Shown in pieces: positions 29,166 through 58,264 of a stretch of DNA of 64,000 nt. A program made the translations under genes and the position numbers. Numbering within the stretch: the first letter of the stretch is position 1; each line of letters starts with the position of its first letter. The DNA is taken from contig OZ316893.1 in NCBI GenBank assembly GCA_973895155.1, forward strand, positions 4,578,977 to 4,642,976, read 5' to 3'. Under the pieces are notes generated by a model. The model was not told the DNA's origin. It saw only the letters and a program-made list of their open reading frames with translations, and searched no databases. The stretch is from Marsupella aquatica. Lineage: Eukaryota; Plantae; Marchantiophyta.

Positions 29166-32100
29166 ATGCAACCTTTTGCCCCGGCCTGTCTTGAGTTGCA
29201 TTGGAGATTTGGCCAAGAGCAAGTGATATAAGGGAACAATATATTCGTGCATAGCAAACTTTCGATAGCAGTTTTCCTGTTAGTATTCATAGTAGTAGCT
29301 TTCCAGATATCCTTTGCTCGGATTGGCGGGATTTAGAACTGGCAAAGTAACTGTTACTATTGAATACCTACCCAAGATAAGTAAATACATGCTGTAATTT
29401 TGGAAGTTGAGATATTATTTTTGTTTCAGAGTGTTATGGAGATTTCAATCGACACGTACTAAACAATTCCATTTGGATGTTGGATTTCCATGTTGATCAA
29501 AGCAGAAACTTTTCACATGTATACCATATTGTAATATTTATGCCCATAAGCTGTAGCAATTGTAGAGTGGTATCCACAAGAATGAAATTAAATGTTTATG
29601 CATACACTGAGTAGATGTCTGGGAAAAGGCTGACAGCATATTAATATATAATTATCCTGCATTTGCTATAGCACACAACACAATCATGGAACAAGTCACG
29701 CAGTAGTTGAAGTCTAGTAATGCCTTAATTTCCAAATAGTAACAAAAGTTTCTCGCAAATTAAAGTCTTCGATGCAAATTTCTGTGCTCTAAAAGTTTCA
29801 CTTACTATATATACTATTTAATGGATGTCATTGGCAACCAATGCCACAATTGTGCAGTCAATTTCACAAGGCTGTGTACTGTAGTAAAAGCATTGTAGTT
29901 ACAACTTTCCAAATAGTTGAAAACATGACTCCCCAAAACTTCACCAAAACTCAGTCAACAAGGTGTGACTAACATGACACCAACAACCTTGGAGTCACTT
30001 ATTTCTGAAGGTCTTGTACGTACAAGCGGGTGTACAAGTCATGTAGAAAGGCAAGGTCTCACAATGGGTGGTTTTCTTCTAGTGACATGATATTAGGAGA
30101 TTAATAAAACTTGGTTACTTAGATTATAGACTTTTGTCCTAGATGGTGCACTCACCTTAAATACAGGGTAATTCCAAAATCATCTAGCGCCACAGAATTC
30201 AGGAGAGTGAAGACCCATATATGAAGACTCCCACAAATGACTCAGTTAAGGTCATCACGTTGAAGTTATACAAGTGACTCTACAATACAGCATTATGTAT
30301 GAGAGCACAACATTTGAACCCTTCACCCTAAACTATGGAATCTATGGGATCCGACCCAATACATATGATTTTGGATACACCTATATCACTAGTACATTTT
30401 TGGCCCTTTTTCCGATCCTAACAACATCGGACCCCTTCAAAAATTCTGACACGGAAAAATGACACGTCCGGTGTCATTTACTTTGCACTTTCCCATACTT
30501 TACACATTGGATATTGACAATCAGACACCCATCGGACTTTCCATTGCTGAAACCATCGATAAATCCGTTATTGGATGTTTTGGATAATTTGTGTCCGTTT
30601 CTCATTTCATCGGATACTAAGATGCTCCGGCAAGGTAAATATCAGGGGTCCGGTGTATTTTATATGGGATAATCTGACGTAAAATATATCGGAGTTTGCG
30701 TACAAGCATTCAGTATTGGAACATCCGTAATTGTTTCCCAAATTGTTTGTAACACCAATTGCAATGCTGAAAAATATCGAACATTGTGAGGAGGGGTCCA
30801 AAATATTTTACATTGGAAGTTCTGTAGCGTGTGGTATTGGATATGAGCTGGGTCACTGGCTCGACTAATAATGGATATTTAGGGTTTGTAGGGGGTTTAA
30901 TACCGGATTCATGGGAATCATTTGGGGGTTTAGGTTTAGGGTTCAGGCTCATTGACAAAATAGGGTCCAAAGAGCATGCTCAAAGCAAGGTAGTGGTTTA
31001 ATTAAATATCAGTTTTCACAATGGGGAACACTCCAATATGTACAAAATGAAATGGGCCTAGATAGGCAGTAGACCCCCGGGGTCCTCACTTTTTAACTTC
31101 CGACCCATCACGCGCGAATAAGTGTATGGTTTTTTAATTCAATTTTTTGGAATACTTAAGAATTTTTGTAGAAGAACTTTAGGGGTTGCGAAATACATAT
31201 TGCAACTTAGAAGTCTAATAGGGGTGCAAAAAACCCCACTTCTTCAATGTAAGCTGTTAGTTTAAGATAGGGCATGTTTGGCATGGACATATATGGGGAA
31301 CACATGTCCATTAATAACTGGTCCACGTGGCACATCCATATCTAAAGAGGTTACTTAGTGTTATAGGGTTTCATGGTGGCATTGAGGGACATATTAATTT
31401 GAATTATCTGGGCAAGAGGTGGATGATCCGAGAGGGGGGAAGGGGAAAGGAGAAGGCTTAGGGTGCAAAGTGTCAAACCCATTCTCCCACATAGACGTTG
31501 GCCTGATATTGGATTGATCGCAATTCCATCCATCCGTCCATTTTTGGGGATCTAATGGTTTACATTGCCTGGCCAGTTTTAGGGAAAATGTGATTGGGAC
31601 CGTTGGACGAAAGACTCCTGTTTTGCAAAGGGAGTGCACAAGGGAGCCGCGAAGTAGGTGCTTTGTGCTCGCTGCCTCGTGGTTTTTTTGAAGGAACTGC
31701 ATGCGCATACGTATGGTGAGGGTGCTGTCTCATTTTTTTCGAAGGAAATCAAGCTACGCAAAGCTTGGGACGGTGCTGCCTTGTTTTTTTCATAAGGAAA
31801 TGCATGCGCAAAGTGCCTTTGCAATGTTTGAGCTGTAGCTAGATGTTCCCTATATGAGCTGAAGGGTGCTGCGGCCATTTTTTAGCAATCTCAGGGGTGC
31901 TGCGGCTGTATTCTGTTTGTCTGAAGGTTGTGGACCTCAAGCAATCTAGGTGCTGCGCTCGTGTTCGGGCTGGGTGCTGGGTGCTGCGGCCGTGATCGAT
32001 GTGGGCTTGGGTCAGGTCTAGACATTGCTTCAATCAACTTTTTTGAAGGAATGCTTACACATAGGCTGGGCGCTACGGCTCTATTGATCGAAGGTGGCAA

Positions 32101-32224
32101 CTGCAAGTGTGAGTGAGGTGCAGCTGAAGTCCTGGCTGAAGTCGATCGGGAGTGAAAGTGATCGGGCAAGTGACACTATGGGCGAGACTGTCGGCGCTGC
32201 GGGTGTGAGCTGTGGGTGCTGGTG

Positions 32225-32480
32225 GGATCAAGCTGGAAGGGCTAAGCGCAAGCTTGAAGGTGAGCTTGAAGGCTGGGGCGAGCTTCAAGGGCAAACCGCA
32301 AGCTGGAAGGGCTAAGCGCGAGCAGCTTGAAGAGCAAGCTTGAAGGCGAAGGGCGAGCTGCTTGAAGGTGAAGGGCGACATTGAAGGCTGGGGCGAGCTG
32401 GAAGGGCTAAAGCGCGAGCAGCTTGAAGGGCAAGATTGAAGGCTGGGGCAAAGGGCGTGCTTGAAGCTAGGCTGGGGCGA
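32225..32480 (+). repeat. GC-rich short tandem repeats (gcttgaagg / ggctggggcgagct) upstream of the second PHD gene
   Basis: Multiple degenerate copies are visible. Confidence 0.75.
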
Positions 32481-33839: not shown

Positions 33840-34338
33840 AGGTAAATCACTATCCAGCAAGTTGAGATGGCTTCTGATGTGCAAGTTGAGATGGCTTCTG
33901 ATGTGCCAAGGATTGACATATTTTCCCATACGGAGCACCCCTTGCTGTTTCTTTTGTGATGAGACAGATGATGTCGTCCTTTGTGATGGGCCTTGTAGTA
34001 GACATTTTCACTTTGTTGGTGGAAAAGGTATGCAAGGACCTGCTTGCACTCCTGTCACATTGCCTAAAAACAATGATTGGAGGGCACCATGGGTTTGTGA
34101 ATTGTGTGCTGTCAACAGAGCTAGATGCTTTGCTTGTGGACTCATTGGCAGATTTGAACATCCCACAGCACAGGAATCCCTTGTGCTCCATTGTGCCCAC
34201 CCTCATTGCTTTTCTCATTACCATCTTGGCTGCCTTAGGGTGCTACTTCAGGTTGGGGCACTGCCTCATAGGTCTCATCCAGCAAGTCCAAACAACCTAA
34301 TGTGCCCAAGGCATCACAAGGAAGATCTGCAAGGTTAG
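33840..34338 (+). CDS. Second EDM2-type composite PHD protein (last exon, ends after the CPxH motif; possibly frameshifted near 33940)
   Basis: CFFCDETDDVVLCDGPCSRHFH...C...WVCELC....RCFACGLIG...VLHC.HPHC..HYHLGCL...MCPRH. Shares CDGPC.RHFH with the 8852-9511 protein. Confidence 0.75.
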
Positions 34339-35233
34339 GAGTTTGAAAGAGGGGAATATAGGGGGTAAGTAGGGAAATTAACCCCAACGTACCTCATGCT
34401 CCCCGCCCCCTTACTATTGGGGGTAATTTCCAGAAGATGAGTTGGGAATTCATTCCCCTCTTATCAAAGCGATTCATGGTAAGGTATTTGTCCCATATTT
34501 AGTAGGGAACCAAATCTCCTTGTAGTGGACGGGCTGCTATGCTTGTAAATTACCTATGTCCCTAGGGTAATCATTCGGTGTGTCTTGCAAGTGCATAACC
34601 TAAACCCTAAACACACACAAAAGAACACAAGAAAGAATACCAAAGAAACAGTGGACATGAGAAACAGTGGACATGATTCAAAGATGAAGTGTTCAATTCA
34701 TAATGCTCCCGGAGGAGGCTCGAACAGGTACATATGTGGCAAGGAAAGACCCACTCAGGCTCTGTCCTCCTAGTCTCATCGTTGTCCTGCTGCACTAAAA
34801 TCACAACGGGAGGAAACGAGAGTGGCACTGACAAGTAAACGAACAGTAAGAGTGTCACTGCCTAACTGACTCAAGCACCGAAGAGAACCTTAGCTAAAAC
34901 TCATCTAGCTACTCTGATGCATTGAACCTCTGTTGCCGATTCTCTCCCAGTATGAACTCCAGATTTTGTTCCATGTTATCTTTTTTCCCGGTTGCACAGC
35001 CATACATGATGTCCCTGATCATCACTCGTTTTTTGTTCTGCACAAAACATGCAACATGCGTACAATTAGAGACCACATATATGGAATTCGTAATTCATCA
35101 TTACTAGTGAGTGCGTGCAGGAATTGTTAGGCAAAGCACGCGAACTGAAATACCCCAATAATACCCCAATAATACCCCATACATAGAGTGACTTTATTCA
35201 CCTTGTAGTCCACGCAAGCACTTCTAATCTTAC

Positions 35234-38200
35234 CTGCAGCTCCAAAATCTTCAACTCAATCGAATCTTTGGCGATAAACCTGACGACTTTCACCGGCCTT
35301 GTTTGCCCTATACGATGTGACCGATCGACGGCCTGGTCCTCTACCGTGGGATCCCACCACCCGTCTACCATAAGAACATGTGTAGCCTCAGTGATGTTGA
35401 GTCCTGTGTTCGTTGCCATCAAGGACAAGAGGATAATGCTGATCTGCATGAAATGAGTAGAAACAATTTAGTTAGAATATATATAAAGAGTTTACCCTTT
35501 GAACAAATACAGACACCGATCTGCACGGATAATGACGGTTGTACCTCTGGGGTCGTCTTGAAATCATTCAAGGCTTCTTCTCTGACATTGGAATTCATTC
35601 CTCCATCAATCCTTGTGAACTTTAGACCAGCCTTCAGAATGTGTGGCTCAAGCATGTCGAGACACGAAGTCCATTGTGAGAAAACAAGAGCCTTCTGCCT
35701 GGGCACAAAGCTTTTGCAGCTGCCTTGTCTTGTAGTGTCCAGCGGAATCGACTTCAGGTATTCCAAGACTGCATCAAATTTTGGAGAAGGTGGGTGTCGG
35801 ACATCATATTCTCTTCGCGCCTTCCCTTTTGACTCCGCACCACCATTCACTAGCCTCAAATCAGCTGGCCTGTATAGGACCTGGGCTGTCACGTATTTTG
35901 AACATTTTGCCGATTTGCAAGTTCCAGCTTCCCGGTCTATTGCACAAATGCCACAGTATACATGGCCACAGCCAGAAATTTGAAATGGACTTCCAATCAA
36001 GCCCCCCTGCACAATCCAACCGTTAAAGTGAGTGCGTGCAGAAATTGTTAGGCAAAGCACGTTAACTGAAATACCTCAATCATACCCCAATCATACCCCA
36101 ATCATACCCCATACACAGAGTGACTGTACTCACCTTGCAGTCCACGCAAGCACTTCCAATCTTCAATTGCTGAAACTCTGACACGAGTCGGGCTCGTTGA
36201 GGCTCACTAAGGGGCGTTCTTTGCACTTTGTTCCCGATCCCCTCTTCGCAAATTTTACATAAGGAAGGAAGTTTCAGGTGCACTGCAAATTGTCCCAACC
36301 GGAGCAGAACGCTCAACACATTCGATAAGGCACCTCTTTCGGCGTCACAGAATTCCTACAACATTATAGGCACATTAATTGCCACCGAACATACACCTTC
36401 AAGGGATCCAATTGAACTCTCATACGCCTTCAACATTGGGGATTATTAAGAGCCTTATGTACCTTGTATAACTGAGCCTTACTCTTTTCCTCCTGATCAA
36501 AATAAGCGTTTCGTTCTTGCTGTGTTCTCCATTCAACAATTTGCACCTCGATCGTCTTAGGGGGCAGTGGGAGTATGCCTGCATGTAAGCACAATGGCAG
36601 GGTAAATGCACAATTGATAAAGAAATCAGGCTTGGGATTAAAAAAAGTGAACTCTACCATGATATATGCATGCACGCTTACTTTTGTCTCTCCTGAGCGC
36701 AATCGCAACCAAGTGTTTCGAGAGGATGCCATTCGCTATCTTTGGCCTTGTCTTCAGCAGCTTCTTTAACTGCGAGAATTCCTTCCATTCTCCTAGAGGA
36801 TAATACCTCAGAAAACTGAAGTAAGGAAACAGATCAGAAGCCTCATTCTATATGGGTGTACCGCTTAGGCACCACCTCCTCTCTGCCTTGAGACAACACG
36901 AGGCCTTGAAATTTTGATTAGTTTTATTTTTCATGACATGACACTCATCCAGGACTACTCTAAGCCAATTAATCTTAAATAGTGGACCTGCAAGTCTAGG
37001 TTTTTACAGGTCTCATCATACTCCCTTTTGGCACGCTGGACGTCTTTGGAGCAATGGGAGACTCCCCTGTCATGATTGAGTACGTAGTGACAACCACGTC
37101 ATGGCTTGAAATAAAGTTGATGTCTTTATTCCTCTTGTTGTGGTAGAGGAGGACCTTCACTTTTGCTATCTTGGAGGTCCTTGTAGCTATTTCTTGGCCC
37201 CATTGAATCACCACGCTGGCTGGACAAACAACTAGAGTTGGCCCACACTTATGAGGGCGATTCGCGAGAAATAGCGCCATGACATGCATGGTTTTCCCCA
37301 TTCCCTAAAAAAATCCAAGCCAAGAAAACGGTCAGGGACCCACTCACTTGCAGACAAGGTGCGTGCGTACCCCTAACATACTCCAAAAATACCCCCAAAG
37401 TATCCCGTTGAATGAAAATAATGAGTGTGACTTTGGCTTAATTTGGGGGCTTTTGTACCTGGTCATCCGCCAACATCCCACCAATTGGAGAGCTTTTTCC
37501 GGATTCGCGTTCCAACATCCATGCAAGACCAATTCGTTGGTGTGGATATAGAGCTGTAGTCATTGTACCAGGTGGAGGGCATGCCTCCTCTGTCAAGTGA
37601 GACCCTTGGATATCAATCTGCGGATCCCGCTCACAGCCAAGTTAGATATGCTTGAACATTGTTTATGAAAAAACAGTAATCACACAACAAAGGAAAAAAA
37701 ATCGCTAACCTTTCCACTCTCTGTGGCACACTCTTCCCAGTGAATGTCTTGTTCTGAATGCTTGTCATCCTCCACTTCATCTTCTTCTTCTTCTTCCTCT
37801 ACCTCTTCCTCTTCCTCCACTTCGATAGCCCTCCTCTTCGCTGGTGAGTGACTGCCACTCGGAATAGAGTCCTCTTGCCCTCTCTTTGAAGCACAAGGCA
37901 AATTTGGTTGTCATGAAATGTGACTCGTCCTAGCCTACCATCCCGGACTCTTAGTTGGAACATGAAATAGAACAGAAATCGGAGGTGACCGTGGTACTTC
38001 TGATGCAATTGCACCCGATGATTTGTCCTCCTCTGTAGCTGAGACCTCTACTTTTGATGTTGGTGCAGCATTTGGTGCCTCTCCTTCTAAAAGTGACATC
38101 TCTTCTTCTGATGCCGGTACCTCTGCCAGTACTAGTGGTGCGGCTGCCTGTAACTCTACCAAAACTAGTGAGTCACCTCCACTCGACATAGACTCCTCTC

Positions 38201-39695
38201 GCTGTATCTTTGAAGTAGGATAATGAATTGGGAAAGTACCTGCTTCTGCTGGTACTGCTACTGGTACCTCTACTATAGCTGGAACACCAGGATAATAAAT
38301 TGGGAAAGTACCTGCTTCTGCTGGTGCTGCTACTGGTACCTCTACTATAGCTGGAACACCAGAAACTGGCGGTAACTCTGAAATTGGGCTACGTTGTGAT
38401 GCCTCTGCATCATAACCTGCATGTACCCTGGCACCAAGACCTACCAGAACCTCACAACATCTCTCGTCACCTCCACTCTCACCTTCTCCACTCGATGTCT
38501 CACTGCCAACTTGTTCTGAATGCAACCCAACCTGCCTTTCCAATTCTAGTATGCGGACTCTCTGTCTGTCGTTTTCTTTCATCAAATCGAGGACCAATTT
38601 TTTATGATTCTCCACTGCTTCTCGTAGCATGTCCGATTTTTCTGCAAGATCAACCTCTAGCGCACGTATGTGCTGTGATAGAACACGCATGCACTCTGGC
38701 ACAGAGGGCGGCGATTTGTGCTCACCCTGAGGACATTTATGTTCATCCTTGGAGAATTGGGGTGCAACCTTCGATGGCTGCCCCTCACCGTCAGATGCAC
38801 CATCCCCTTCCTCATCCTCTCGTGAGCCATCTTCTCCTTCCTCGTCCTCTCGTGATCCGTCATCCCCTTCCTTGTCCTCCTGTGAGCCACTGTCCCCGTC
38901 CTTGTCCTCTTCTGAGCCAGCCTCCCCTTCCTCATCCTCTTGTGAGCCATTGTCCCCTTCCTCCTTGTCGTCCTCCTCATGATCATCTTCGTGTTGTTTG
39001 ACCATAAGCTCCTCCAGCGAATACCCGTAGTGTACAAGAATCTGCGTTATAGCAGTGCCACAGTAGCAAGGAAGTCGTTCGTCTACGACACCATTCTTCG
39101 ATAGGTGTGACTTTAACGTGAGGATCTCACTAGTCAGATTATCGTACACCAAATGTGCCCAATCGGGCTTCACCACGGGAGTTTCAACTCCTCTAAAATG
39201 ATCACGTACCCTAATCGTATCCCACCAATACGCCTAGTATACCCACATGTCTTTTGAGGTGACTTGAGTGGGTTTGCTCTTGCCTAAGAGCAATTCATAA
39301 ATCGCCCTGATTATCCCACACCACTGCATATATGGCGCTGTGATTTTGTCTAGACTGTATGGGTTGCCTTTCATCTTGGCAGAAAACATGGAATTTAGTT
39401 GACCTTGGACCAACCCAGGTTTAAATCGGGCCCATTCTCCAGACGAAAAAGCAAATGCAGCTCGCAATACCTCTCTATTGAATGTGTGAGTTGCACCCCG
39501 GAATGACACACAGTTTTGACCTTGATCATACCCTACTGCAAACTCCTTTACAGCAGGAATTGCAACTATGGGCCAGTTGAGTTCAAAACATGGAACCAAA
39601 CCAGCTTTTCTAGCTAAATTATGGTCTGTAGGGGCCATCCCTAGATAATGTCGTATTACCATCCCCGAGCATGACTTCCAAATCATCTCCGTCAC
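35234..39695 (-). pseudogene. Fusion pseudogene: retroelement-accessory (Transposase_32/PMD-like) domain, acidic and coiled-coil linker, then SNF2-RING-HelicC ATPase (Ris1/FRG-CHR27/28-like)
   Basis: One reading frame from 39695 to 37710, broken only by TAG/TGA stops (39234, 37935, ~37911). Phase-0 intron 37709-37618, then EEACPPPG...LYPHQRIGLAWMLERE...GGMLADDQ|GMGKT, TLVVCPASVVIQW, VVVTTYS, WLRVVLDECH and WCLSGTPI*N. RING motif CxxC...CGHVYCxxC...C..C. HelicC motifs KALVFSQWT, RIDGGM, GLNITEA and DQAVDRSHRIGQTRPV. Frameshift near 37000. Confidence 0.85.
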
Positions 39696-40444
39696 GACTG
39701 TACAAACAAAGCAGGCCTTAGTTGCGCCATTCTAACAATCGATCAATATACTTCATGCGGAATTAAGAACCAAAGGAGTTGAGTGAAAGAGGGGTACATA
39801 TGATCTGTGATATCCTCGTCGCTCTGCATCAACAATGCGACCGGCGCTGGACGATCATGTCGATGAACCATACTTTCACCAATCCTCCAACATCACCCCA
39901 CGCTCGTCGATACTTACTTCCATCGCTAACACCCCAAGTGTTATCCAATGGCAGACTTGTCAGCCACAAAGATTTACGAAACCTACACAATCAAAGACTG
40001 GAGCTCAGGAGCTCGCACCATTGCCCAAAGCTTATAAGGAATTCCTCATAGGGCGTTCATGTGCGCAGTGGCATGCATCATTTAGTCACTGTAGTTTTAG
40101 TAGTAGATCTCACAACAAAGATTCTGTCTCCGATCGGTGGCACCACCCTTTCACTCCCCCAACGTACATTTTATCACGTTCCCAAGTAACCTGGTAATAC
40201 CCATCCATTATGTCACGTCCGACCCAGAATCCAACGATATTCGTGACCCGTGCCGTCCCCGATCATACCCCGTGCGAAGCACCATAGTGTCACCATCACA
40301 TGCTCACGTCTGACTTGCATCTCACACATCCTACGGTCTGCATCCTGGTCAGTATTCAGTTATTGACAAAACGGCGCCTCTCAAGTGTTGTCATATCCCA
40401 TAGTATCTTTCTTTTTGTCGTACTTGGGACTTTCCATGGTATTA

Positions 40445-43400
40445 CTATACGGTATTCCACCGTACAGGGATACCATGGTGAAGTTCAATTGCACGAAAAT
40501 CAAGCCTCAACGCACCTAATCTTTGAAAGGTGATGTGTTCATCAATTTGTGATGCTGCCTTGTAGATTGGGCAACTTGACCGAGAACCCTGTACAGACAA
40601 CCAGCTCACACCAACCTTCCCGAGGTCCTTCTCAGTATCATTTGCATTGTGCGATTCTGCCATGTCATCCCCTCCCTCCTCCTCCTCCTCCTCCTCCCCG
40701 TCAGAAGCACCGTCCACTCCTACATCCCCCGCTTTCATTTCCGTTGCCGCATCGCGCCTGGGAAGGAGGACTTCCCTTACAACACACAGGTCAGGGACGG
40801 AAAGTGAGTCCGATATTGCAATCATTATGTCCCCTACCTCTGGGAAAGGAGGGCAGTTTGCAATTGTGGTAGGGAGTTCCCGTACTAAAGTATCTCCAAT
40901 CTCCAAGGCTACAACCTCCCTCCCGCCTCTTCGAATTGGGAAGAACTTGTGTAGAATTCTTGACATAGGCCTACAGTTGTTGCCATGTGCGTGATATACT
41001 TTTGGTTCCAAAAGAGTAAACAGGGAATACTCATCTCGTTCCCAAGACAGTAAATTTTGCCGAGGATCCTGTGTATACTGTTGTTTATACCAATCTGCCT
41101 CAAAGAATATGTCCATGTGGCCATCGAATTCGTGCATGAAAATCTTTTGGAGTACTACTTTCCAGTTTTGAGGATGTGAAGCATCTGTACTCCCATCTAC
41201 CAGTACAACAACGTGATCGCCAGGCCTGTACACTTCAGCTCTCCACACAGTTGATCGCAATGGAGTGCAAGATTCACTAATTTTGTGGTCCTCACTGATG
41301 TTGAATACTCCAACATCTGTCCAATGCTGCTTCAATGACATCCTGGCGGACAGCCCCAGTTTCTTTGTCAGCTTCCTGTTTGAGCCTATGCCAACCCCTT
41401 TGCTCAACAACATGTGCTTGCAACCATATGACTCCACAGAGGATATCATACTATCCCACAATTCCATCGCTAGAATTTGACTTGAAACTATTGGCACCGA
41501 ATTCCCGTGCCAGTGTGGGCATTCAGATGGTGGTATAGTGACTCTGCACCTGTGCTCCTTACGATGCTCCGCAGGGACACGCAGGGACGCATGAACTTTC
41601 TCCAAAGCCCTCTGATGAGGGAAAAGTCCATCATCATCTTCCCAAATGTACGACGATATTTCTGTGAAAAAGCGTCGTGCAAAATGAAGAGAATAAGTGA
41701 CTTCCTGGTCCTTCTGATTTGTTCTAGTGCGTCCATAGTCTGATACCATCCTCTCAAAGCGGTAGCACCAATAAACATAGTGTGGGCCATGTCGTTCTAT
41801 CCCATCAAATATCTCTCCGCTCCCTAAAAATTGGGATCAAAACACATTGGGATTAGAACATCACCTCAGTGCAATGATGGATCGACCAACAATGAATACC
41901 CACTGTCATCATGGTCATGTAGCAAGTGTAAACAAAATGACTCACCAGCAACATGCTCTAGAATTGCTCCATTTGGGCCCCAAGCTCGGGGGTCTCACTA
42001 TATGGGGACCTCCCCATCACCTGCGACGTTTTTAGGCCTCGAACCCCCTCAAATATAAGAAAAAAAAATTCCAAAATTTGGATTAAAAAGACCCTAATAT
42101 TCTTATAAGTCTCCAAATTGAATTTAAAAGACCCTATTGTTCTTCTGCAAAAAATTTTAAGTCTTCCCTTAGAACCAATAAAATGACCCTATCCTTCGTC
42201 GCACGTGATATGCCATTTTTGTGGAAGTGAAACCCCCGAGGGCCCAAGCCTCTTCTGAGCGAACTCTCCAAGAAGCCAATAGAGACCTGCCTTTTTTCAA
42301 TGTGGCTGTAGTCCAACCCTCTTGTCTACTTCTGATATAAAAGAGGCGTGCAATCTCTACCAAAAGAATCCCAAGCGTCCCAAGGTCAGAGTGGACACTA
42401 ATGTCCATCTGTTGGAGGATATGAGGCAGACAATACAATATGAATCGCGTGAACTCTTCAGCCTTGAAGTATCCCAATCTTTCAAAAGGTTGTTTAGGCC
42501 ACCTTCCATCAAAACCTCTCGGTTTCCTAGCAGTAACCTCCTCCAGAGCATCTTCAAACTGTTTTTGATGTTGACGGGGAACACTCGAAACTAGAAGCTC
42601 GCAGTATTTCTTGAAAAGGCACAAGGCAAGGATATGCATTGTATCATACACCAGATCCTTGCTCAAACAAAATCCAGTAAGCTCATGTAGTTGCCAAGCC
42701 CTGGTCATGTTTGAAATCCCGCACTCCCTGCTTATCTTCATCCTCTCTGCAATTGTTCCTGCCCTGGTCATGTTCCTGGCCACCTCCCTCACCTCTTCAA
42801 TATTCCGTGTAGGTTGTGGATATCTCATCTGCATCCTATTGTTGTCATACACAGCCCTTCCCAGAAAACCTCGGGGTTGTGATTGGTCAGTCTCCTTTCG
42901 AGGATGATCAAACTTGCACTTCATCCATCGAGTGCTCATTTTACAATTCCTACAAGCGAAATAACCTGTAACATTCCAGCCCCCAAATTTACATTGTGCG
43001 GGATGATCTCCAGTGAAAACTGCTAACAGTGCTCGTAGCACACACCTGGAGTCATTCGGTACATTATCCTCTTCAGCCAATAATTCCATAGGGTAATTGT
43101 AATCCACCTCTATCCCATCCACAAACAACTCCTCCAGTTCTCTTATGAATGGTTCTAAGCATCCAAGCATTTCAGCTTTTTTTTTCCTACGTCGTCATCA
43201 TCACATGGCGGGATAAAAAGAACAGGGATAGGTGGAATTTTGGTTTGAGACCCGGCGCTTAAAACTTGGACCTCTACAGTCCAGGTGCTTTTGTGGGCAG
43301 TCTTGGTAGACTGAAATCCATCCCAGTGTGCCATGAGTGCAATATTTCGGGGATCACCCTGCATGCGGTGGGTCACACTAGTTAGACAAAAGTTACTCTA

Positions 43401-46632: not shown

Positions 46633-46910
46633 TGCACATGATGTGAACATTTAATTTGTGGAAGTGACCCGCACCCCCACCCACCCTGAGCTACCTCCAT
46701 ACTTCATCCTTAAATTAATTAACCTTCCACATATGCATGCATGCATATATGTGCGCAAGTCTTAGGGTTTAGGGTTTAGGGTTAGGGTAATGAATAAAAG
46801 GCCCCTTACTTCGATCATTTGCACATGATGTGAACATTTAATGGGTGGAAGTGACCCGCACCCCCACCCACCCTGAGCTACCTCCATGTTTCATCCTTAA
46901 ATTAATTAAT
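46633..46910. repeat. ~90-bp direct repeat pair flanking a short telomere-like (TTTAGGG/TTAGGG) tract
   Basis: tgcacatgatgtgaacatttaa...cacccccacccaccctgagctacctccat...aaattaattaa at ~46633 and ~46820. ttagggtttagggtttagggttaggg at 46762-46787. Confidence 0.8.
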
Positions 46911-47904
46911 ACGCCTGCCTAGCTGTATGTTTGGTCGCGTTTCACAGGACTTGGCAAGGAAATGATAATCATTTCCAATCTTATTTTTATGTTTCTCATA
47001 TTTATGTAATAATATATACTAAGTGCGTGATGACCCCCCCCCCCCCCCCTAAAGAAAAGAAAATAGAGTTTTAAAAAGCAAAATGACCCCTGCCTCACCC
47101 AATGCTTTTGTGTCCCTCCTCTTCAAAAACCCTTATAACTTCACCTTAAAAGCAGGAAAATGTGTTAAAAACTCTCCCCTTGTAAGTCATCATGATGTGA
47201 CATAAAGTGTGCCAATGGTCCATATAACCGGCAATATAAGGCAATATAAGGGCCTAGATCCAACATTTGAAACATGTGGCACATGGCACTGACAAAGTAT
47301 TGTAGACATTATTATGGGCCCTGTTTTAGGCCCCTCATCACAAGTTCAGCCATATAGCAACCTCTATAAGATTCAATGTATGTAAGGAAAGCTCCCACAA
47401 GTTCAGCCAATGCCTTCAGAAAATGAAAACTCAGATTTATGTTAGGGGAAGGGTGAGAAATTTAGAACGGAAGGAGACAAAGTCTTTTTTTATTTGATTT
47501 ATTTTTCCGCATATTTACTCCATTAAAACGTGCCCAAGTACACGAAGTGTCCGCCATGTCTCCCAAGAGAAAAACTCCGCGTCTCTCTAAAATGAACGTC
47601 TCCAAAGCTCCGCTTCTGTAAAGTCAACGTCCCCGCAAAATCAACGTCTCCCAAAACTCGGCCCTAAACTCCGGGTCTCCCTTCTGGATCCTCTACTTGC
47701 ATTCACTTTGCGCCCCACGATAATATACTTATCTAGTGACAACTCTGCACAATTTGTCGAGTGTTCTGCAGTCAGGCTTGTCATTTGATTCGCAACCATT
47801 GTAGATCGGTATTCGTCCCTTCCTGAGTAGTGCTTGCGCCCGGCTGAGTGCCTGCCCTTTGCCACTATTGTTTGGATTTCTGCTGGGCGGCTCTTTTCAG
47901 AGAC

Positions 47905-48609
47905 ATGGCCACACTCAAAGATGTCGTTGGCTGCTGCAATGCTGGAGAAACGAGGACCTTCCCATCGATGAGGGTTTTTGTGGTCAATTTTGATGCTCCA
48001 ATCAATTTTCCACGGAAGTTTCTATACCATGGATGCACTTGCTTTGTGACACTTGGGTGGATGTGTAATCACACTGTTGAAGGGTCAAGTCGATGTCCCC
48101 ATAATTCGGTTGCTGCTGGGACCTGGACAGAAAGGTATCATTTTGAGGTGTTCCTGGTTGACTCTACTATCGGGCCACACTTCCCTCTAGTGCGAGCTAA
48201 GATTTTTGATGCAGTGACTGATCTCATAGGGATGCCTCCGCAGGATTTTAGCGAGAAGGAAGACTTTGTCCAGTTTGCTACTGTCCATAGAGCTACAGCA
48301 AAGATGGAATGTGTGGACGTAGTGATCCGCTGCAAAGACGGTGAGGCCATTATTAATTCCTTGTCACCTGTAAGCGATGACGACTGTGAGATCTTGCATT
48401 CTGTGGTGCCTACTTCTGTCACTCCACGGAAGACGAAGTTGAAGATGGACAGTGTACCTTCAAGTTATCATATTGCACGAGGGAGGCATACAGCAGAATC
48501 TTCAAGATCATCTATTAATGCTTCAGACCCGGCCACGGCGTCGCAGCTTAGTTCTGTTAGATGTAGATTGCAGGACCTGCTTGATAGTTTGGATGCAACT
48601 CATATTTGA
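47905..48609 (+). CDS. RPA1 DBD-C-like (Rep_fac-A_C) zinc-binding OB-fold protein
   Basis: FLYHGC...C.H.V....RCPH...ERYHFEVFLVDST...AKIFDAVTDLIGM follows the F.Y..C..C...C..RY.....D.T...FD....LIG pattern. Acceptor at 47900 and ATG at 47905. The ORF is open. Confidence 0.7.
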   Translation: MATLKDVVGCCNAGETRTFPSMRVFVVNFDAPINFPRKFLYHGCTCFVTLGWMCNHTVEGSSRCPHNSVAAGTWTERYHFEVFLVDSTIGPHFPLVRAKIFDAVTDLIGMPPQDFSEKEDFVQFATVHRATAKMECVDVVIRCKDGEAIINSLSPVSDDDCEILHSVVPTSVTPRKTKLKMDSVPSSYHIARGRHTAESSRSSINASDPATASQLSSVRCRLQDLLDSLDATHI

Positions 48610-51233
48610 TGTGACCAGATGCAAGCACAACGTACGACGGTTTGGCATTTTGGGCAGGAGTCTTTTAGTTTGTAAGGTTCCTACAGGCCATACAATGACC
48701 TGCCATTTTGGTTTGATATGGCATAACGTGTATGCTTGGTTTGTGGGGCAAGTGGGACCAGAATGTATGTATGTGAATGGTCGACTTATTTTCAATGTGC
48801 AATAAAGGGGGGCTCAGACCTGCATCTGTTAAATGAAGGTTGTGATGTCCACGATGCGTTTGTTAAAACGTACCAGAAAGTAATTGGGTGTTAATCGGCT
48901 GGTGTTTAATCGATGAATGGGTCTCGGCTAGTGTTTAATCGATGAATGGGTCTCGGCAATTTTTCATTTTGCAATTTGTGCGCAATTTCTTAAGGAAAAC
49001 TTCCAACTTCAAACTCTGATACAGGACAGCAAATAGAACTCAGCCACTATAGCGCTTTTGCGGATCGCAGCGACATCATGTAGTGGGTCATCATAGTTCA
49101 CGGAGAATTGGGTAAGGGCCCCTCCCCAATCTCTGGACATCAACAGACCAAAAAAATAGAGAAACACCTGAAACTCATTGGGCGGATCTGCGGCTCCATC
49201 GATCCCAACGACCAGGAAGGGAAAAAAAACACAAGCATACAGACAACTGTAAAAACAACGTGACCCCAAACAATACATTTATGGCAGATGTGTTCTTGTT
49301 CCAGTAGGTGTTCATTATATTTATGGAGAATTGATGGGTAATGTATGTAAATGAATAATGGAGTTTGCACTTTGAAGGCCGGGGCAACGCCTGCAACTCA
49401 ATGAAGAAGTAAGTAATCATGAAAAAATAGACGACAACTTCCATATGCGTAAAATAGGTCATAAAATTATCTTTTGCGACAACTTACCACTGCATACCGG
49501 TTGGCAAGGGGGGGTGGACAGCATATTGGCAACCCGGGCGGTTGCCACAAAACAGGCATCAGCCTTGGACGATGCCACAACACCTTTGTCAGCATGGCGC
49601 TCATGATGTATATTGCTTCAACTGTAATCTCAAAGACTCAAAAAGTGTGGTCTGTTCTAAATATCCGAGTTCATTCTCATACTAACCTTGTAACATTAGT
49701 GTTGGAACGAGCATAACCACAAATACCCCAAACATACCCCTCACATACCTCGCACATACCTTGCAACGGCAGAACAAACTACGTCACATCCGCTTCTTCA
49801 CTTCCTCTGATATTAATGCTCTACCTGTTTCATATGACCTGCGTAGCCTGCAAAATATTCCACATACCATATATAATTAATGATGCATGTTGCATGAAAA
49901 TAGATCACGGAGTCTGTATCATTGAACATCCAAATTCATACCTGTTCCATCGATCAGAGCGCACCAGACACGAAGAAGATATATGGTTTAGTTGGTTTCT
50001 AAGGATCGGTGTACAGGGGGTGGCTGGCCAGCCTTGGGATCGGTGAAATCGATGACGAGTTTCAAGGATGCGTAAATGGTACTGTAGGATATTTACTAGT
50101 AAGCCCGGGCTAAGGAAGAAGTGGGTGGTAAAGGGTTAGGTAAGATCTGCTTTCGCTTTGAAGTATACGAGAACCCTATATTTGACCTGCGAGCATATTT
50201 CAAACTCAAATCATAAGCAAAAACTATCGCAATCAAAAGAATTGACTCCGAGTGCTGCCAATAATTTCTACCAAATCCAAAACACATTACAGGATATCGC
50301 ACAAGGTGGCATGGGATTTGACAGAGAATTCTCCCACGTAGTACAAAGATCCACAGGTGGCCTGTGGACTTCCACGTTTTGGATGATGTTATCGGGCGCG
50401 AACGTGTAAAACTTATTCTGAAGTTGTCTGAGCTCGCATAGAGGAGAATCGAACACTTAGAGTGGGAGGTGTGAGCTATGGTCAATCACCTCCACTCTTT
50501 AGTACCTTTGGAATCGTTCCCGCGGAAACGATCCCTCTAAAACTGGAGGGAAACTGAGGCCAGCCTTATCTTCTTGGTATCCTATGTAGGGTATTTGCCA
50601 CATAGGCTTCTGATTGATCAGAAGGTCATCGCAGCTGGCGGCTTTACTTTCCCGAAGTGCAGGCTGCGCTAGTCTCCATGGGAATAGTTTGTATCTTGTC
50701 CTAACTTGTCATAGTAATCCAAACTGCGTGGACTTTTGAGTTAGGCCTAGAATAGTAGAGTGAGGGAAAATTTCCCAGTTGTATAATCATGACCGCAACT
50801 CCTAAATCCCCGGCCTAAATCGGCTGGATAGAAACAAAATCAGCGATGCGGTTGACGCAATGGACTGCGGATATATCGCATTTTGAAGAGTGACATTATT
50901 AATTTGGACCAGGGCGGTCAGTTCAAAACTGATGAGGACCAGCTTTGAGGCGGGCAACGCATGCACTACTTGCCTTGCAACCTTTACCTTGAACATGCAC
51001 GGGCGGGCGATTCAAATGGACGATGAACCCGCAACCTTTACCTTCAACACGCGCGGGCGGGCAATTCAAACGAACAATGAACGAGAGAGGCAGTGAGTGC
51101 GCTTGGTGTAATACTCCCTTTTCGTTTTAAGTCCCCCTCTGTATTTCACTATTTCTGCTACGCGTACGCCTGGAGTGAAGTCGATCTTCAAAGTTTCCTA
51201 CACTTGATCGACGTTGATTGAAACAGAGTTGCA

Positions 51234-54200
51234 ATGCATGAATGGAGCAGGCTTACGTGTAAGGAATTGTGTGAAAACATTGATCGATGTTTAGAATCGA
51301 CAATGTACACTCCCAAAATTGAGGAGTTGGATCTTACTGGGGAAAGCTTCTTCTGTATGGATGGGGATGATTGGCAACTTTTCTTTGACAGTGTGGGGAT
51401 GAAGACATGGATGCACAAAAAGAAGTTGAGGAGATGGGTGAATGAATGCAACGGGAGCAGCAATACCGGAGTCACACAGCCATCATAGCTACAGCCATCA
51501 CCGCTGCAGCCATCACCGTTGCCGCCAATGAAGACACTATCTGAACGTGATACGAATCGAAAGGAGAGCTCTGGTGAAGAAGAGCACAAGTCTATCAGAC
51601 CTGCTGAAAATACCCGCACTCCTGATGCACCGGAGAGAGAGACGTCTATGATTGGTTCTACCAAGCATCATCAAGTAAGTTGTTTGTCTCCCGTGACATT
51701 AAATTAGCCTATTGAAATCCATTGCGACCACGGCAAGGACCTCTTCTGATAATCACGCGAAGGCATCTAATGCAGTGCACAATGGTAGTTTCTTTGTTTG
51801 ATTGAATACACGCTGATGTGTGTTTCGACGCTGTTGTGCACAGTTCTATCCTTCGGCAGAGGACATCTTCAATGTGACCAACAAATCTGGAGGACGGTCC
51901 ATTCTGGCTTCTAAGCATGTAGAAGCGCACCAAGCTCACAAGGCAAATTACAGAACGGTGAGGAATTGGTTTGCGAATTCGCCGCCGACAAGGAGATATA
52001 CGAATACCTCAGTGCAGATTTCAAGTCTGACACAAAGACAAAAGAGAATTGTTGATTGTATGTTCAGAGTAGAATGCACGAACTTTCACCTCTCAAATTT
52101 GAGTGTCCAGAAACCGGATCTAAACATGAGATGCCTTGGCCAAAAAGCTTCTTGTTTGAGGTCGTCAAGAACAGAAAGCATGAATGGAGGAAAGCAAATG
52201 CAAAAATCAAGGAAGGTACGTACTGACAGATTCCCATTCATTAGTTAGCGTAGTGCCATTGATTTTGGCAATGAACTGTGTTCTATCTTTCGCAACTTGG
52301 AAATAACCTGGAAATACCCTGGAATTAACCTCAAGTACTTGCACTAAATTTCATTGCAGGTGCCATCCCTACGGCCCGAAAAAAGGAGCCGACTGATTTT
52401 GCAGATATGAAGGTAGAACCAAATGCAGATGAAGCGATTGCCATTGGACATGGACAATCATACCCAGAGATTTTTGTGGAACTTCGTGCGTATGCATTCA
52501 AGGTGACCTTGGTAGAACTGCAAATGAGAGACGCCAATAAGTCTGTAAGGTATAAGGGGCAGTACAGTGGAGAGGTCGTTGGTCGTGGAATACCAAAGAG
52601 TGTCCATGTTATTAAGAAAGTGAGATGGTGGAAGATTAAGTTCATGAAGGCCTAGTCTAATGGTAATCCGTCATTGCTGGCGCCTTACTGGGTGCCATTA
52701 ATGACACCTTCAAAGGGTCTGCAGATGGTACAGTTTGGGCACTTAAAACCAGTAAGTATGGTGCCATATACATATATATATATATATATGCATTTACCAA
52801 CCCTAGGTTCATTGCATCGGAATGAATCTGCTTCTCTGGGTTCTGCAGGTTTTTTCATGTTGCCCAGTCAATATGTATCGAGAGGTAGAGATGTTAAATG
52901 AATGTGGTTTTCTACAATATATTTATATTGCAAGATTCCCTGGCACTCATGCACCGTCACTATTGATGTGCATGTACATATTGCAGGACATGTCCATTTT
53001 TGTTCCGAGAGCATATTGTTCCATGAGTCCCAATCTGGCTCATAAAGTATGCCAATCGTATTCAGGTCCCTCTCCTCAGGGTTCTGCTGTCTCAGGAAAG
53101 ACCTCCAAGAGAGCGGGGTTACCGGAGATAGGTCCCTCTCCTGAGGGTTCTGCTATCTCAGGAAAGGCCTCCAATGGAGTGGGGTTACCGGAGATGCCTA
53201 ACGTTGAGGAAAACCCTCTTTCAAAACCGAAGAAGCGAGTGTTGGCATTAGCTGGCCATGAAGAAGATGCAGAGGGAGGGGCGAAAGTAGAGCATAGAGA
53301 GGAAAGCAAAGCAGATGATGCAGTCAGGTCCAGCGATGGAGAGCCAAGCGAGGATACTGAAGTACTGGATACCACTACATACAGCCAGGAGAAAACATCG
53401 TCAACATCAACTATCAACTTGCAAGTTGATTGCTTCACTACATCCACCCAACTTTACATTGAATCTGACGAGGATGATGAAGACACTAATATAAGGCCTA
53501 ACGATCAACCGGAACCGGAGGTACGAGTATTTTGCCATGCTAGTTGCATTCTTATATATCATACGTATGTAATTAAAATTAAGACATCGAGTTTGCTTTA
53601 TACTTATTTTTCAGGTAAAAAGACAAAAGATTGAGAGCAGTCCTGCAGGGGGAAACAACCCGCTACTGTCCAAGGTATATATCATATATCATTGTATGTA
53701 TAAGTTTTGTATATTGCAATTATTATAATGGCCTAAAAGTTCTATTGTACAAGTGATGTATATGACTTTGCAATTCATTCTACTTTGAGCCTAGGTTCAC
53801 CAATATATACAATGATTTGCACATCCACATATGCATGGCAGGTTAAGACCGAGAACAAGGTGGAGTCCTTGCAAGCATTCGGGACCTAAATCAACCAAGG
53901 AGTAGAGCACAAAGAGGCAAGGGTCCGAACCCAGGCAAAGAAAACGTACCTTCATTTAGAGCTATTTCAACAAAGGTACAGGAGGATGCAAGGGAACGGT
54001 TGTTGACCGGCAAAAACATGGTATGATTTCTTATTTCCATCCATTGTAAGCCAGCAGTCTTTATTAGGTTGCAGCAATCATTGTGTACAATGTGTAGACA
54101 GAAATTGTATGTGTGGAACGTACTCTTGTGGTCTCATTATGTGGTCATTATATATGTACAGGCAAACCAGGAAGAAGTTTTGTGTGCTCAAGGAACCCGG

Positions 54201-54664
54201 TCGACGAGAAGTAACAAGTCCCAGGCTTCTGGAGACTCCAATATAGTAAGCATATACTGAGAAGTTTTGCACGATTCTGTAAATAATCATTTATAGCTTG
54301 TCATTGGTGTACTACCATATTTTAAAAAGCTCACCAAAGATTGTAACTTTTGCAGAATTTTGAAAAGCTCACCAAAGACGCCAAACTAGTATTGTGCATG
54401 AGAGCCATGGGTTTGATGAAGACCTGCAAAGTGGAGGCCAAATTGCGCACGTTTGTAGCAGATACGAACAAGCGGTCAAAGACTACCCCCAAGCCATTCA
54501 CCAAACACGCTCAGAAGAATGCATCAGAGTTATTGGACATGGTGGCCAGGTGGATTGTAGAGCAGAATGTAGTGATCGTTACACATCTTCCGGCTTTAAA
54601 TGCCGATGGCCAACAAAGGATCTTCCCTGAAAATGCTATGAAGAAAGCCGGGGAAGAGGTATAG
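51234..54664 (+). pseudogene. Multi-exon gene with an N-terminal SAM-like domain, otherwise unknown; premature stops
   Basis: W...T..EL...I......Y...IEELDLTGESFF.MD.DDW.....VG....HKKKLRRWV fits the SAM consensus. In-frame TAG at 51486 and 52652, with GT-AG-bounded downstream exons. Confidence 0.55.
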
Positions 54665-55059
54665 TACTCACTACATAGATAGCATACCTGCATCGCTCTA
54701 TGAACGGCACAAGCTAGACAAGTTATGAATATGATTGCATTATATATTGACCAAGGGCCACCACTACTTGCTTCGTGTTTCACATATATATACATATATA
54801 TATAGAGAGAGAGAGATGGGAGTTGCTAACGTACTTAGTTTCTAATGTACAAATGAATGCTACTTAACTCACTGTGATCTTATTTACAACGCTATGAGGA
54901 AATGATTCAAAACCATATTAGAAATTTGATTTGCGTAAGCTGGGCCCAATAAAGAACCTTACATTCATGATACCCATCGACATTTCATGGTATTCATTGG
55001 CAATATGACTGGATGGTTTTCGATGCAATTCATTTGGGGACGCCAGACATTTTTAATAC

Positions 55060-55890
55060 CCCATTGGTAATACGTGAGGATCCCCCAATACCCCACAATA
55101 CATAGGCGTTACATCGTGAATCCCCACTTCATCGTAGGCAATTTGGATGATGCAGATGCACATTATCCTGGAATTTGACGATGCGGATGCAATTTGACGT
55201 AGCAAGAAGCCTGGAATCAAAAATACCCTACAAATACCCCACGGTATGCAGGTAAAATGCACAAGTAATCCCCGCTTCGGCATAGGAAATCTAGACGGTG
55301 AAGATGCATATCATCCTGCAAACCTCCAGGGCTGTTAGCAAAGCCACCTGGAGAGTGGCAATTGGAAGTGGCATACCAAATACCCCAACGATACCCCAGG
55401 GTATGCGGGTAATATGCACACAGAACCCCTACTTTGCAATAGGAAATTTGGATGGTGGAGATGCATATCATCCTGCACACCTCCAGGGCTGCCAGCGAGG
55501 CCACCTGGAGAGCGGCCATTGGACGCTGACAACCCAAATACCCTAGAGATACACTAATGTATGCGGGTAATATGCACACGGAATCCCCACTTAGCCACAA
55601 CAAAATTGGACGGTGGAGATGCATATCATCCTACGCACCTCCAGGGCTGCCAGCGAAGCCACTTGGAGAGCGGCAATTGGACGCTGACAACCCAAATACC
55701 CCAGAGATACCCCACGGTATGCGGGTAATATGCACATGGAATCCCCACTTTACCACAGCAAAATTGGATGGTGGAGATGAATATCATCCTGCACACCTCA
55801 GCGAAGCCACTTGGAGAGTGGCAATTGGACGTTGACATCCCAAATACCCCAGCGATACCCCACGGTATGCGAGTAATATGCACACAAATG
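55060..55890. repeat. ~157-bp tandem array (~5 units) rich in ATACCCC
   Basis: aaatacc anchors near 55222, 55378, 55536, 55694 and 55843, with conserved gcatatcatcctgcacacctccagggctg. Confidence 0.88.
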
Positions 55891-56829
55891 TTGCGGAGAG
55901 CGCGACCATCCAAGGACCTGGATTATGCCAACTGCCTCCGGCTTATACAAATAAACACGCAAATGTGGGGAAATGTGGAGGCGCTAAACCCTTCTGTAGT
56001 TGGGTATGTTACAGGAAACACCCCAAATGTCATGCCTGTGGGACACATAGGCAAATTACCCAAGGGAAACGTCGAACTGCTAGAAGTATCAAATCCCTCG
56101 TTATGTATGGGAAAGCATGGGTATTTTCAACCAAATTCCCTAAGATGTCCGGAATCCCCACTTCTTTGTTATGGTACACTGATTCACCAAGTCAGGTGGG
56201 GAAATCCCCAACTCCTCGACCATGCATATCCTCCTTGTGCATTTTTGTGAGTACTGTAAAGTGTACAAGGATGTCATTAAAGACTTTGTACAGTGTCGGA
56301 GGTGCCCTCGCAGTTGGTGTCATGATGAGACACCTGGGGGGTGAAACACCTTAGGAGGTGTGTGAAGGGCAGGGACCACTGGGATGTGGAAGGGTGGCGT
56401 TTCATTTATTGTCATAGGCATCCAATACCTGAGGGGGAATTGGTTCCTGCACAGCCACATACCTCTTAGAGTTTCTGAGTTTGGTAGAAATGCTTTGGTA
56501 GAGCAAACTTATTCACTGGACTAATTATATGTGAAGTATGTTCAACAAGCTAGTATTTTGGAGTAATGTCTAATATGCTTCATATTGTTTTGTTTATTGT
56601 GCTGTATGGCAGGTTCATTGTGTGACTGTGATTGTTTTTAGAACCCCTTCATACTTTAACTTTAACAAATTGATTGAAATGGCTACCCAGTTTGTAAAAC
56701 TATTGCACAAGAAAAGGGATGTGGTGACTGATGGGAAAGATGAAGAACCTATAGCTATGTTGGCCTTCAAACTTACTTCCTGTTGGCCTTCAAAGAAGGA
56801 CAAACCCGGATCAAAGTTGAATTCCTGAT

Positions 56830-58264
56830 TTGGTTTATTTTGATTTTGATTTCTGGGATTATAGGCTTCCTGGTCGCATGAAGGTCAAGAGTGAGAAAAT
56901 GACTGAGTTGTCTGAATTGGATGGGAAAGTTGTTGTCATTGAACAAATTGGATCCTTGCATACTGGCAGGACAGAGTTTCCATCAGTTTCTACTCCTATC
57001 ACCCAATCGGTTGGAGTGGACTCTTCCCAGGGTGAACAACTGCAAGAAGCTCCCCCTATGAGAGCTTCTTTTGAGTCTCTTCTCATGTCTCAGGCGGCTG
57101 TCAAAGTCTGGAATGATGAATATATAAGACTAGAGAAGTGGATTCACAAGAATGGTTATAAAGCTCATAATTGGAGAATTCAAACTTGGGATGAAGGACA
57201 GGATGTGAGAGGCCATTTGGAGTGTCTTGAGTGCAGAGTGGTCTATGGGAGGGCAGACAATTCCCAAGATAAGAAGTCAATTGCTAATTTTTTTAGCAAT
57301 TTTAAGACCAAGCACCTTGTCTTTGCTAAACACAAAGACAATTATTGCAGGAGAAGGGGCATTGCTATGATTGGGGTCAAGCCTGCAGATCTTGCACAGA
57401 AGCCTGAGTTTGATTATGAGGGGGCCATAACAACTGGCCTAGAGATAGTCCAGACTCTGAATGCTGAGTGTGGAGGTGATGATGAGCTGTTTTATGTGCC
57501 CCCTATGCCAGGTCTAGCCAATAATGCAAATAAGTGGTTCCTTTATAAGGTTCGTTGTAAAGTCTGTGGGGCAATCATGGATTTGGTTTGTAAGAAAGGA
57601 ACTTTGGACCACAACCTGAGGACACATTTGGTCAGTCGGGGTCACCTGGATGTAGTTGAAGCCAGAGAGAATACTACTGAACTTGCATTGAGATCTGGAA
57701 AGAGGGGCAGACCAAGGAAGCCAGATGAGAGGGATCAACATCCTTCACAGAATTCAACTTTAAAATTCTTCAAGGAGGATGCTTCCAATGCAAGCAGTAG
57801 CTCTGGTACAGGTGGGTCTATAGACATTGATGTGGGCTTAAGTTTGCTCTGTTGGGGAATATGGGATGAATATGTAGAGCGGAAGAATGTGAAGTATGCT
57901 GTGAAGGGTATCTTGCATGATCAGCGTGGTGGACATGTATGGGATTTAGATGCTGCAGTCTTTGTTGATGTCTACAATCCTAACACAAGTTCTATTGTAC
58001 ATATAAAAGGACTATTTAGGCATAGAGATTGCTCTAGGCTGTCCTTGTATGGTGGGGGGTTTCTGAACCTAACTTGCAGTAGATGTCATGTTATAACACT
58101 AGAAGATGACTTTCGTGGGCGGGTGCACAGGGAAGCAGAGGCTTTAGCAAAGAGAGGGGAAAGAAGCACAGAGGGTGGTTTGAATGCACGTTATTTGACA
58201 CGTCCAAAGTTGACCACACAGTTGCATGGTCTGAATGTCAAGAGAAGAAAGGAGAGATGGTTGT
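56830..58264 (+). pseudogene. Zinc-finger plus AT-hook protein, probably the N-terminus of a TE protein, truncated by the insertion at 58265
   Basis: CLEC...KHL...KH and CKVCG...NLRTHLVSRGH (C2H2/BED-like), KRGRPRK AT-hook and a further C-rich block. Composition changes abruptly at 58265. Confidence 0.6.

Follow-up and report, generated by a model that had tools for sequence, protein, structure and literature searches.

Plant CACTA transposons are usually treated as two-gene elements. Larger relatives have been described in other lineages: the fungal Entons, DNA transposons derived from En/Spm, encode extra proteins that include an SNF2 helicase (PMC3520738, PMC3627910); the En/Spm giants of Chondrus extend over 16-20 kb with 4-5 open reading frames (ORFs) (PMC6431247); and the giants of Bostrychia, at 17.4-19.1 kb, carry three accessory genes (bioRxiv 10.1101/2025.02.11.637652). 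The large multi-gene En/Spm build, in some cases with SNF2, is already known in fungi and red algae; a land-plant variant of it is described here. This variant lies in a 64-kb stretch of contig OZ316893.1 of Marsupella aquatica, called the window throughout, which is eukaryotic with spliced genes and whose proteins have their closest named relatives in liverworts and ferns. Positions 34315-56239 of the window very probably constitute a single EnSpm/CACTA-type DNA transposon (the inner element) inserted in the PHD gene of an unrelated transposon (the outer element).

Like the Entons, the inner element is of the En/Spm cut-and-paste type with several extra proteins, and their combination of an En/Spm-derived transposase with an SNF2 helicase is present in it. 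However, Entons are fungal and have 5-6 conserved proteins, whereas the present element is of land-plant type and intron-rich, with about 4-5 genes, and its SNF2 is fused to a transposon-type domain; the comparison is by description only. With the red-algal En/Spm and Plavaka giants it shares size, chromatin-type accessory genes, and tandem arrays proposed as self-binding sites, but their cargo consists of a methylase-SET protein and an oxygenase. Plavaka A/B termini read TGT or CATCA (PMC12730594), unlike the CAC ends found here, and a Plavaka identity was dropped on account of these termini and of the absence of a Plavaka Pfam match in the window pieces and seven relatives. Canonical plant CACTAs have in common with the inner element CAC..GTG ends, a 3-bp duplication, a D-D-E transposase with C(2)C, and a subterminal array; they differ in that the inner ends read CACAA and not CACTA or CACTG and in that a single His replaces H(3-4)H. 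The inner element gave no DUF4218 or DUF4216 Pfam match, and a TnpA-type match was absent from all 249 frames scanned. A preliminary description of the window, made from the sequence alone, had claimed a gene set beyond the usual CACTA content; the multi-gene cargo stands, but the list is shorter, and En/Spm elements of 16-20 kb have been reported in fungi and red algae. A literature search, whose coverage excluded Repbase Reports and most subscription papers, found no description of such an element in land plants, and a prior entry is quite possible.

The boundaries of the inner element are given by its 33-bp CAC..GTG terminal inverted repeats (TIRs), its target-site duplication (TSD), and the gene that it interrupts. 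The pair 34315/56239, in which 14 of 16 bases agree and which is flanked by CAT at each end, ranked top among 71,380 CA..TG end pairs and was the sole pair with a 3-bp duplication among the 30 pairs listed; that scan set 29.2-35.2 kb against 54.7-56.7 kb, windows that were picked after the motif map had been seen. A wider scan (21-45 kb against 45-59 kb; 81,351 CAC..GTG pairs) returned the same pair, with a score of 18.5 versus 12.5 for the next. Removal of the insert and one CAT extends the PHD frame by 33 residues to a 173-aa NSD-type product, which aligns across the junction with the PHD protein of a canonical CACTA at 1-20.5 kb, used as an internal control (64.7 bits versus 51.6 for the filled allele). 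The 34-aa piece to the right of the insert matches PHDvar_NSD on its own, although below the cut-off. The interrupted PHD gene is an independent check on the boundaries. Of the features that define EnSpm/CACTA (CMC/CMCT clade), the inner element has both the CAC..GTG termini (PMC12730594) and a TSD of 2-3 bp, here the 3-bp CAT with the frame restored. All features are collected in Table 1.

Table 1. Coordinates of the inner element, the outer element, and their parts in the window.
Feature	Position	Strand	Remarks
Inner element, complete ends, dead copy	34315..56239 (21,925 bp)		TIR pair, TSD, restored empty site, motif, CpG
Left target duplication, CAT, 3 bp	34312..34314	+	
Right target duplication, CAT, 3 bp	56240..56242	+	
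Left TIR, starts CACAAGG	34315..34346	+	26/33 aligned columns same as right TIR
Right TIR, starts CACAAGG on minus strand	56207..56239	-	
Fusion gene: Transposase_32/ATHILA-ORF1-like N-terminal domain, acidic linker, SNF2-RING-Helicase_C	34909..39686	-	In-frame stops, frameshift near 36990
Divergent EnSpm/CACTA-type DDE transposase	40445..44758	-	Stops at 44653 and 44377, frameshift in A-run near 43185
256-bp miniature inverted-repeat transposable element (MITE) inside transposase	41985..42240		15-bp inverted ends, 8-bp target duplication (1 mismatch)
Open 234-aa ORF, probable RPA-C-like OB fold	47905..48609	+	Atlas lead only
Companion gene, 5' exons	51303..52655	+	Lineage-linked domain in exon 51844-52000; stop at 51486, frameshift
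Further spliced coding pieces, companion gene continuation or one more gene	52807..54664	+	No family match
Eight short 11-nt-period ATACCC arrays	35147, 36077, 37366, 39204, 40241, 43407, 49732, 52294 (span 35147..52326)	+	Mostly introns and spacers
Subterminal tandem array, 4.3 x 158 bp, paired ATACCC motif per unit	55221..55885	+	
CACTAG end of outer element, not of 21.9-kb element	30387..30409	+	
Outer element, 5' part of NSD-type PHD gene	33895..34314	+	
Outer element, 3' part of same PHD gene	56243..56344	+	PHDvar_NSD E 0.0065, restored frame
Outer element (likely): N-terminal half of P-element-like transposase, zinc fingers and AT-hook	56678..58262	+	Frameshift near 56820

A sequence motif delimits the same interval. 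The preliminary description had named ATACCCC clusters as shared by most of the genes, and a motif-blind scan was added for that reason; in the whole 64 kb it returned six period-11 arrays, every one of the ATACCC motif and every one inside the inner element. ATACCCC occurs 20 times on the plus strand and never on the minus strand, always between 35150 and 55855, that is, 20 times in the 21.9 kb inside the inner element versus 0 in the 42.1 kb outside. A matrix built from four arrays (35-43 kb) recovered four more, those at 49721 and 52301 scoring 32.7 and 17.8, where the highest score among 100 shuffles was 16.7, whereas the hexamer count for 45-55 kb alone was borderline (8 observed, 2.4 expected, shuffle maximum 8); the signal is carried by the arrays and not by a simple hexamer count. 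There are no plus-strand arrays between 30387 and 35000 or after 55900, and their absence from 30.4-35 kb casts doubt on 30387 as the end of this element. CpG levels divide the window similarly: the observed/expected ratio is 0.55, 0.56, 0.58, and 0.61 for the four inner genes, 0.14 and 0.17 for the outer PHD and ZnF genes, and 0.24-0.25 for the neighbouring CACTA. In L007, a metagenome contig with a related transposase, another one-strand word forms a cluster near the transposase start, a single example that the blind scan missed.

The inner transposase, which starts at 44758 on the minus strand, is matched by Transposase_21 below the cut-off (E value 7.9e-6), and its profile found nothing significant among PDB sequences. 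Its catalytic Asp pair and C(2)C nonetheless align to the TnpD of the neighbouring CACTA (26% identity over 334 aligned residues), so that the marks of TnpD homology, DDE and a C(2)C after the second Asp, are present; the final Glu was matched by eye, MAFFT having misaligned that part. Among 4351 candidate proteins of 546-2000 aa, 15 homologs of the core were found, 11 from Riccia sorocarpa (42-48%) and four from Adiantum nelumboides (38-39%). A metagenome scan confirmed 10 of 143 pattern matches (36-70%), and in viral contigs, none of 46 was confirmed. Two stops, one frameshift, and the 256-bp MITE disrupt this copy, and the inner element as it stands is dead. Similar C-to-T-type stops had been claimed for most genes; TAG/TGA stops do occur in the transposase, the SNF2 fusion, and the companion gene, but none is internal to the PHD, OB-like, or 56821-58262 frames.

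The SNF2-RING helicase fusion seen earlier is borne out as 8 exons, separated by 7 introns that are all GT-AG, with an N-terminal domain joined in frame to SNF2, RING, and Helicase_C, a layout that we take to be that of the RAD5/RAD16 group. In a Pfam scan of 134 frames, PHD, SNF2, and Helicase_C were supported, and RING (E 0.016) and the transposase weakly; nothing was found in 111 frames from 45.5-59.3 kb, and an Rfam scan of 30-60 kb gave no match. The labels "BAH-like", given to a region of the transposase, and "SAM-like", given to a further gene, had no Pfam match, although the transposase itself stands. The stop at 36847 falls where the SNF2 motif presumably has Gln, which a C-to-T change fits. 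The N-terminal domain scored 0.90-0.91 in the ESM Atlas to clusters with 14-47% Transposase_32 and 65% ATHILA, a lead only; a likeness to an ORF at 61.7-63.5 kb was discarded (pairwise E 0.19 only). Two of the SNF2 introns (35106-35231 and 36027-36163) share ~130 bp at 85% identity, motif array included, which suggests that the array spread by copying between introns.

The ORF at 47905-48609 is a probable RPA-like OB gene, as the preliminary description had it, on the strength of an ESM Atlas lead (0.90 to Rep_fac-A_C; the ten named matches all belong to a single family group; recognition 1696, short of the 2300 mark); Pfam gave no OB family at E<=5, PDB no sequence match, and the single-sequence model is unusable (predicted local distance difference test, pLDDT, 31). 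A Helitron origin finds no RepHel match, and nearby hairpins are weak (-4 to -7 kcal/mol).

The companion gene was first seen through one fern gene model that matches 51850-51978 (E 2.5e-4). A domain profile from two fern models matched a single one of 2081 window pieces (at 51817, E 5.9e-5); of 1226 pieces of the transposase loci, it picked out L007:1907-2335 (E 4.4e-8; next 1.1). A six-sequence profile matched the window at 1.9e-7, with a weak sign of the second half of the domain in the adjoining frame (E 0.16). The L007 gene is oriented divergently from the transposase and lies ~6 kb upstream of it; the window has the same arrangement, at ~7 kb. A database search found the domain in 14 proteins, all from Adiantum, 11 of which had transposase sequence in the same gene model. 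The protein model (P0173) contains a helical unit, with residues about 30-110 at pLDDT 85-94. A homeodomain identity was rejected, the VIA-align DUX4 row (Z 4.8, root-mean-square deviation 3.2, 64 aligned) being at background (best Z 5.9), as was a likeness of the exon at 54356 to a fern C-terminal domain (profile E 3.2, not significant). L007:3454-3771 and 2575-3407 (minus strand) hold a possible companion 5' exon, which is unlike that of the window; between it and the conserved exon there is an apparent insertion.

The distribution of the arrays invites comparison with VANDAL elements, whose VANC motifs sit in introns, spacers, and tandem repeats (PMC5735166); in both systems a short family-specific motif is massed in such places. 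However, VANDALs belong to the Mutator superfamily, VANC homology was not found in the inner element, and an array-binding protein is putative here. These features have led to the following model. The transposase would cut at the CAC..GTG ends and paste with a 3-bp stagger. The 11-nt ATACCC arrays would be recognized by a protein of the element (the companion, or else the fusion through its N-terminal domain), in the manner of VANC on VANDAL motifs; once bound, this protein would recruit the SNF2 motor to the chromatin of the element, opposing silencing, while the OB protein would bind single-stranded DNA in excision or repair. An anti-silencing role of the extra genes is held tentatively, as a possibility somewhat short of an even chance; it is preferred over the alternatives because the arrays are internal, noncoding, and private to the family, as in VANDAL, and because there is a structural link between VANC and a plant mobile domain protein of transposon type (PMC13547354). 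CpG retention in the inner genes fits this role but is not specific to it. The explanation as a whole, that of a 21.9-kb nested element whose extra genes likely keep its own copies readable and mobile, is considered likely.

A doubtful but serious alternative is that the extra genes act in transposition itself, with SNF2 clearing nucleosomes at donor or target, the OB protein handling single strands, and the arrays serving as TnpA-type synapsis sites. Canonical CACTAs carry TnpA just downstream of the transposase, and the fusion gene occupies that position here. In addition, the array of greatest size has a subterminal position (~350 bp away from the right TIR), and the motif core reverses near both ends. 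The SNF2 of Entons has been described as potentially involved in transposition (PMC3627910). Yet most arrays are internal, lying in introns and spacers across 17 kb on one strand, which VANDAL fits better than end-limited TnpA sites. It is also conceivable, although unlikely, that the SNF2 and OB genes are passengers without a role (Pack-type capture or old nested inserts) and that the core consists of transposase and companion. Neither gene was found among 179 fetched proteins, and in 10 loci around related transposases there was no SNF2, N-terminal, or OB-like sequence (best E 0.14; the four longest have flanks of 0-2.1 kb downstream and 2-8.4 kb upstream). Passengers would not, however, be expected to carry the element's own arrays in three SNF2 introns. 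Nor does this reading suit the build of the SNF2 gene, which is spliced, of full length, and joined in frame to a transposon-type domain; the CpG levels of the SNF2 and OB genes, which are like that of the transposase; or the surroundings of the OB gene, where there is no inverted repeat >12 bp and no strong Helitron-type end.

The absence of these genes from the 10 loci also weighs against the explanation as a whole, as do several other results. The evidence on the inner element comes from one copy within the window. High CpG is not restricted to it, since LTR (long terminal repeat)-like ORFs at 59-64 kb have a ratio of 0.60, and the related transposases in the loci range over 0.29-0.48. For the N-terminal fusion domain, 600 candidates (407-2000 aa) yielded no homolog. 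DNA binding by the companion domain is putative, Foldseek having found no fold match at E<=0.001; in the fern models this domain lies downstream of the transposase and not upstream, and the 14-protein search was seeded with two fused fern models and covered longer proteins only, which favours fusions. Finally, an H(3-4)H motif preceding the final Glu is common to EnSpm and kin (PMC12730594), but the window transposase has a single His, as have 15 of 16 relatives (those reaching the site), whereas the TnpD of the neighbouring CACTA has both; this suggests a divergent sub-lineage and not a canonical EnSpm/CACTA member.

One element of at least 28 kb running from 30387 and including the PHD and ZnF genes, as originally proposed, would explain an end that looks real and an outer element that now physically contains the inner one, but it is highly improbable in view of the inner TIR pair, the duplication, the split PHD frame, the array and CpG distributions, and Riccia sorocarpa, where P-like and inner-type transposase genes are never adjacent (none of 5 P-like genes adjoins any of 11; nearest pair 22 locus tags apart). 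Much of that proposal survives in altered form. The genes do belong to transposons rather than to the host; one CACTA/EnSpm-type element does run from the SNF2 gene to the tandem array of 158-bp units, at 21.9 kb; and membership of genes beyond 45 kb, which had been left unproven, extends to the right TIR at 56239 but not to the ZnF gene beyond.

The outer element instead comprises the PHD gene, the end at 30387, and, likely, the ZnF gene. That end reads CACTAG and is built as the end of the neighbouring CACTA (~20514, minus strand); as the preliminary description had said, its right partner is not in the window, gapped or ungapped, and a near match at 56295 was rejected as being at background level without a duplication. 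The PHD gene is confirmed as NSD-type (PF22908, E 7.9e-7). What had been taken for a separate ZnF/AT-hook cargo gene encodes the N-terminal half of another transposase, which is P-element-like. For the ORF at 56.7-58.3 kb, 167 relatives were found at E<=0.001, the longer of which extend into a DDE-type core with D, D, D(2)H, and E motifs, an order that we take to be the P-type pattern. The core itself is absent from the window; one of 12 relatives matches TNP-like_RNaseH_N below the cut-off (E 0.0022), and the profile found nothing significant among PDB sequences. Sixteen relatives were looked up among 150 listed, and nine of them are species-named (Riccia 6, Calypogeia 2, Adiantum 1). The gene was rejected as inner cargo because it lies beyond the right TIR, has low CpG, and is kept apart by the Riccia locus tags. 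From its position ~330 bp after the PHD stop, the shared strand, and the CpG level, we infer that it is part of one element together with the CACTAG end and the PHD gene. The outer element seems to combine a P-like transposase with an NSD-type PHD gene and a CACTA-style end, which would reflect a P-like family of seed-free plants or, alternatively, a swap of transposases; nothing specific on P elements in bryophytes was found in the literature.

The P-like frame is interrupted near 58263 by a GC-rich insertion (58263-64000) with first bases TG, coiled-coil ORFs as inverted duplicates (arms 60227-60977 and 63246-64000, 87%), and no Pfam match above the cut-off; it is putatively LTR-retrotransposon-like. 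Two different transposons in the window have an NSD-type triple-PHD gene (8855-9523, minus strand; 33895-56344) upstream of the transposase, with 28% identity; PDB matches are NSD2/NSD3, and the layout presumably resembles Arabidopsis EDM2. The neighbouring CACTA, on the minus strand, is canonical in its Pfam content (Transposase_21 at E 4.6e-66, DUF4218, DUF4216, and an NSD-type PHD gene); it has a CACTAG end near 20514, which is duplicated (~18931 and ~20514), and ~7 kb of subterminal arrays with units of about 578 bp and 83 bp. Another CACTAG end of this type lies at 30054-30084 (minus strand); no partner was found for it. An element of ~1.8 kb at 22312-24157 has imperfect inverted ends of roughly 130 bp, with no clean duplication found; one of these ends starts like the inner TIR, and it is possibly a non-autonomous relative. 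An open 388-aa frame at 27999-29165, F-box/kelch-like by eye but without a Pfam match, is likely a host gene.

The inner element brings the large multi-gene build of fungi and red algae to a land-plant-type genome. Its transposase lineage is almost invisible to Pfam, its companion domain has neither a family nor a fold match, and its exact ends can be used for collecting copies. It may be speculated, although this is unlikely, that it represents a distinct EnSpm sub-lineage of seed-free land plants with VANC-like, sequence-specific anti-silencing, exerted on the 11-nt arrays throughout the element by a motif-binding protein together with a captured SNF2-RING motor. If so, self-targeted anti-silencing would have arisen independently outside Mutator elements, with the remodeller borne by the element. 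Should a protein of the element bind the arrays, they would provide a second testable case of transposon self-protection and possibly a motif-targeted chromatin tool.

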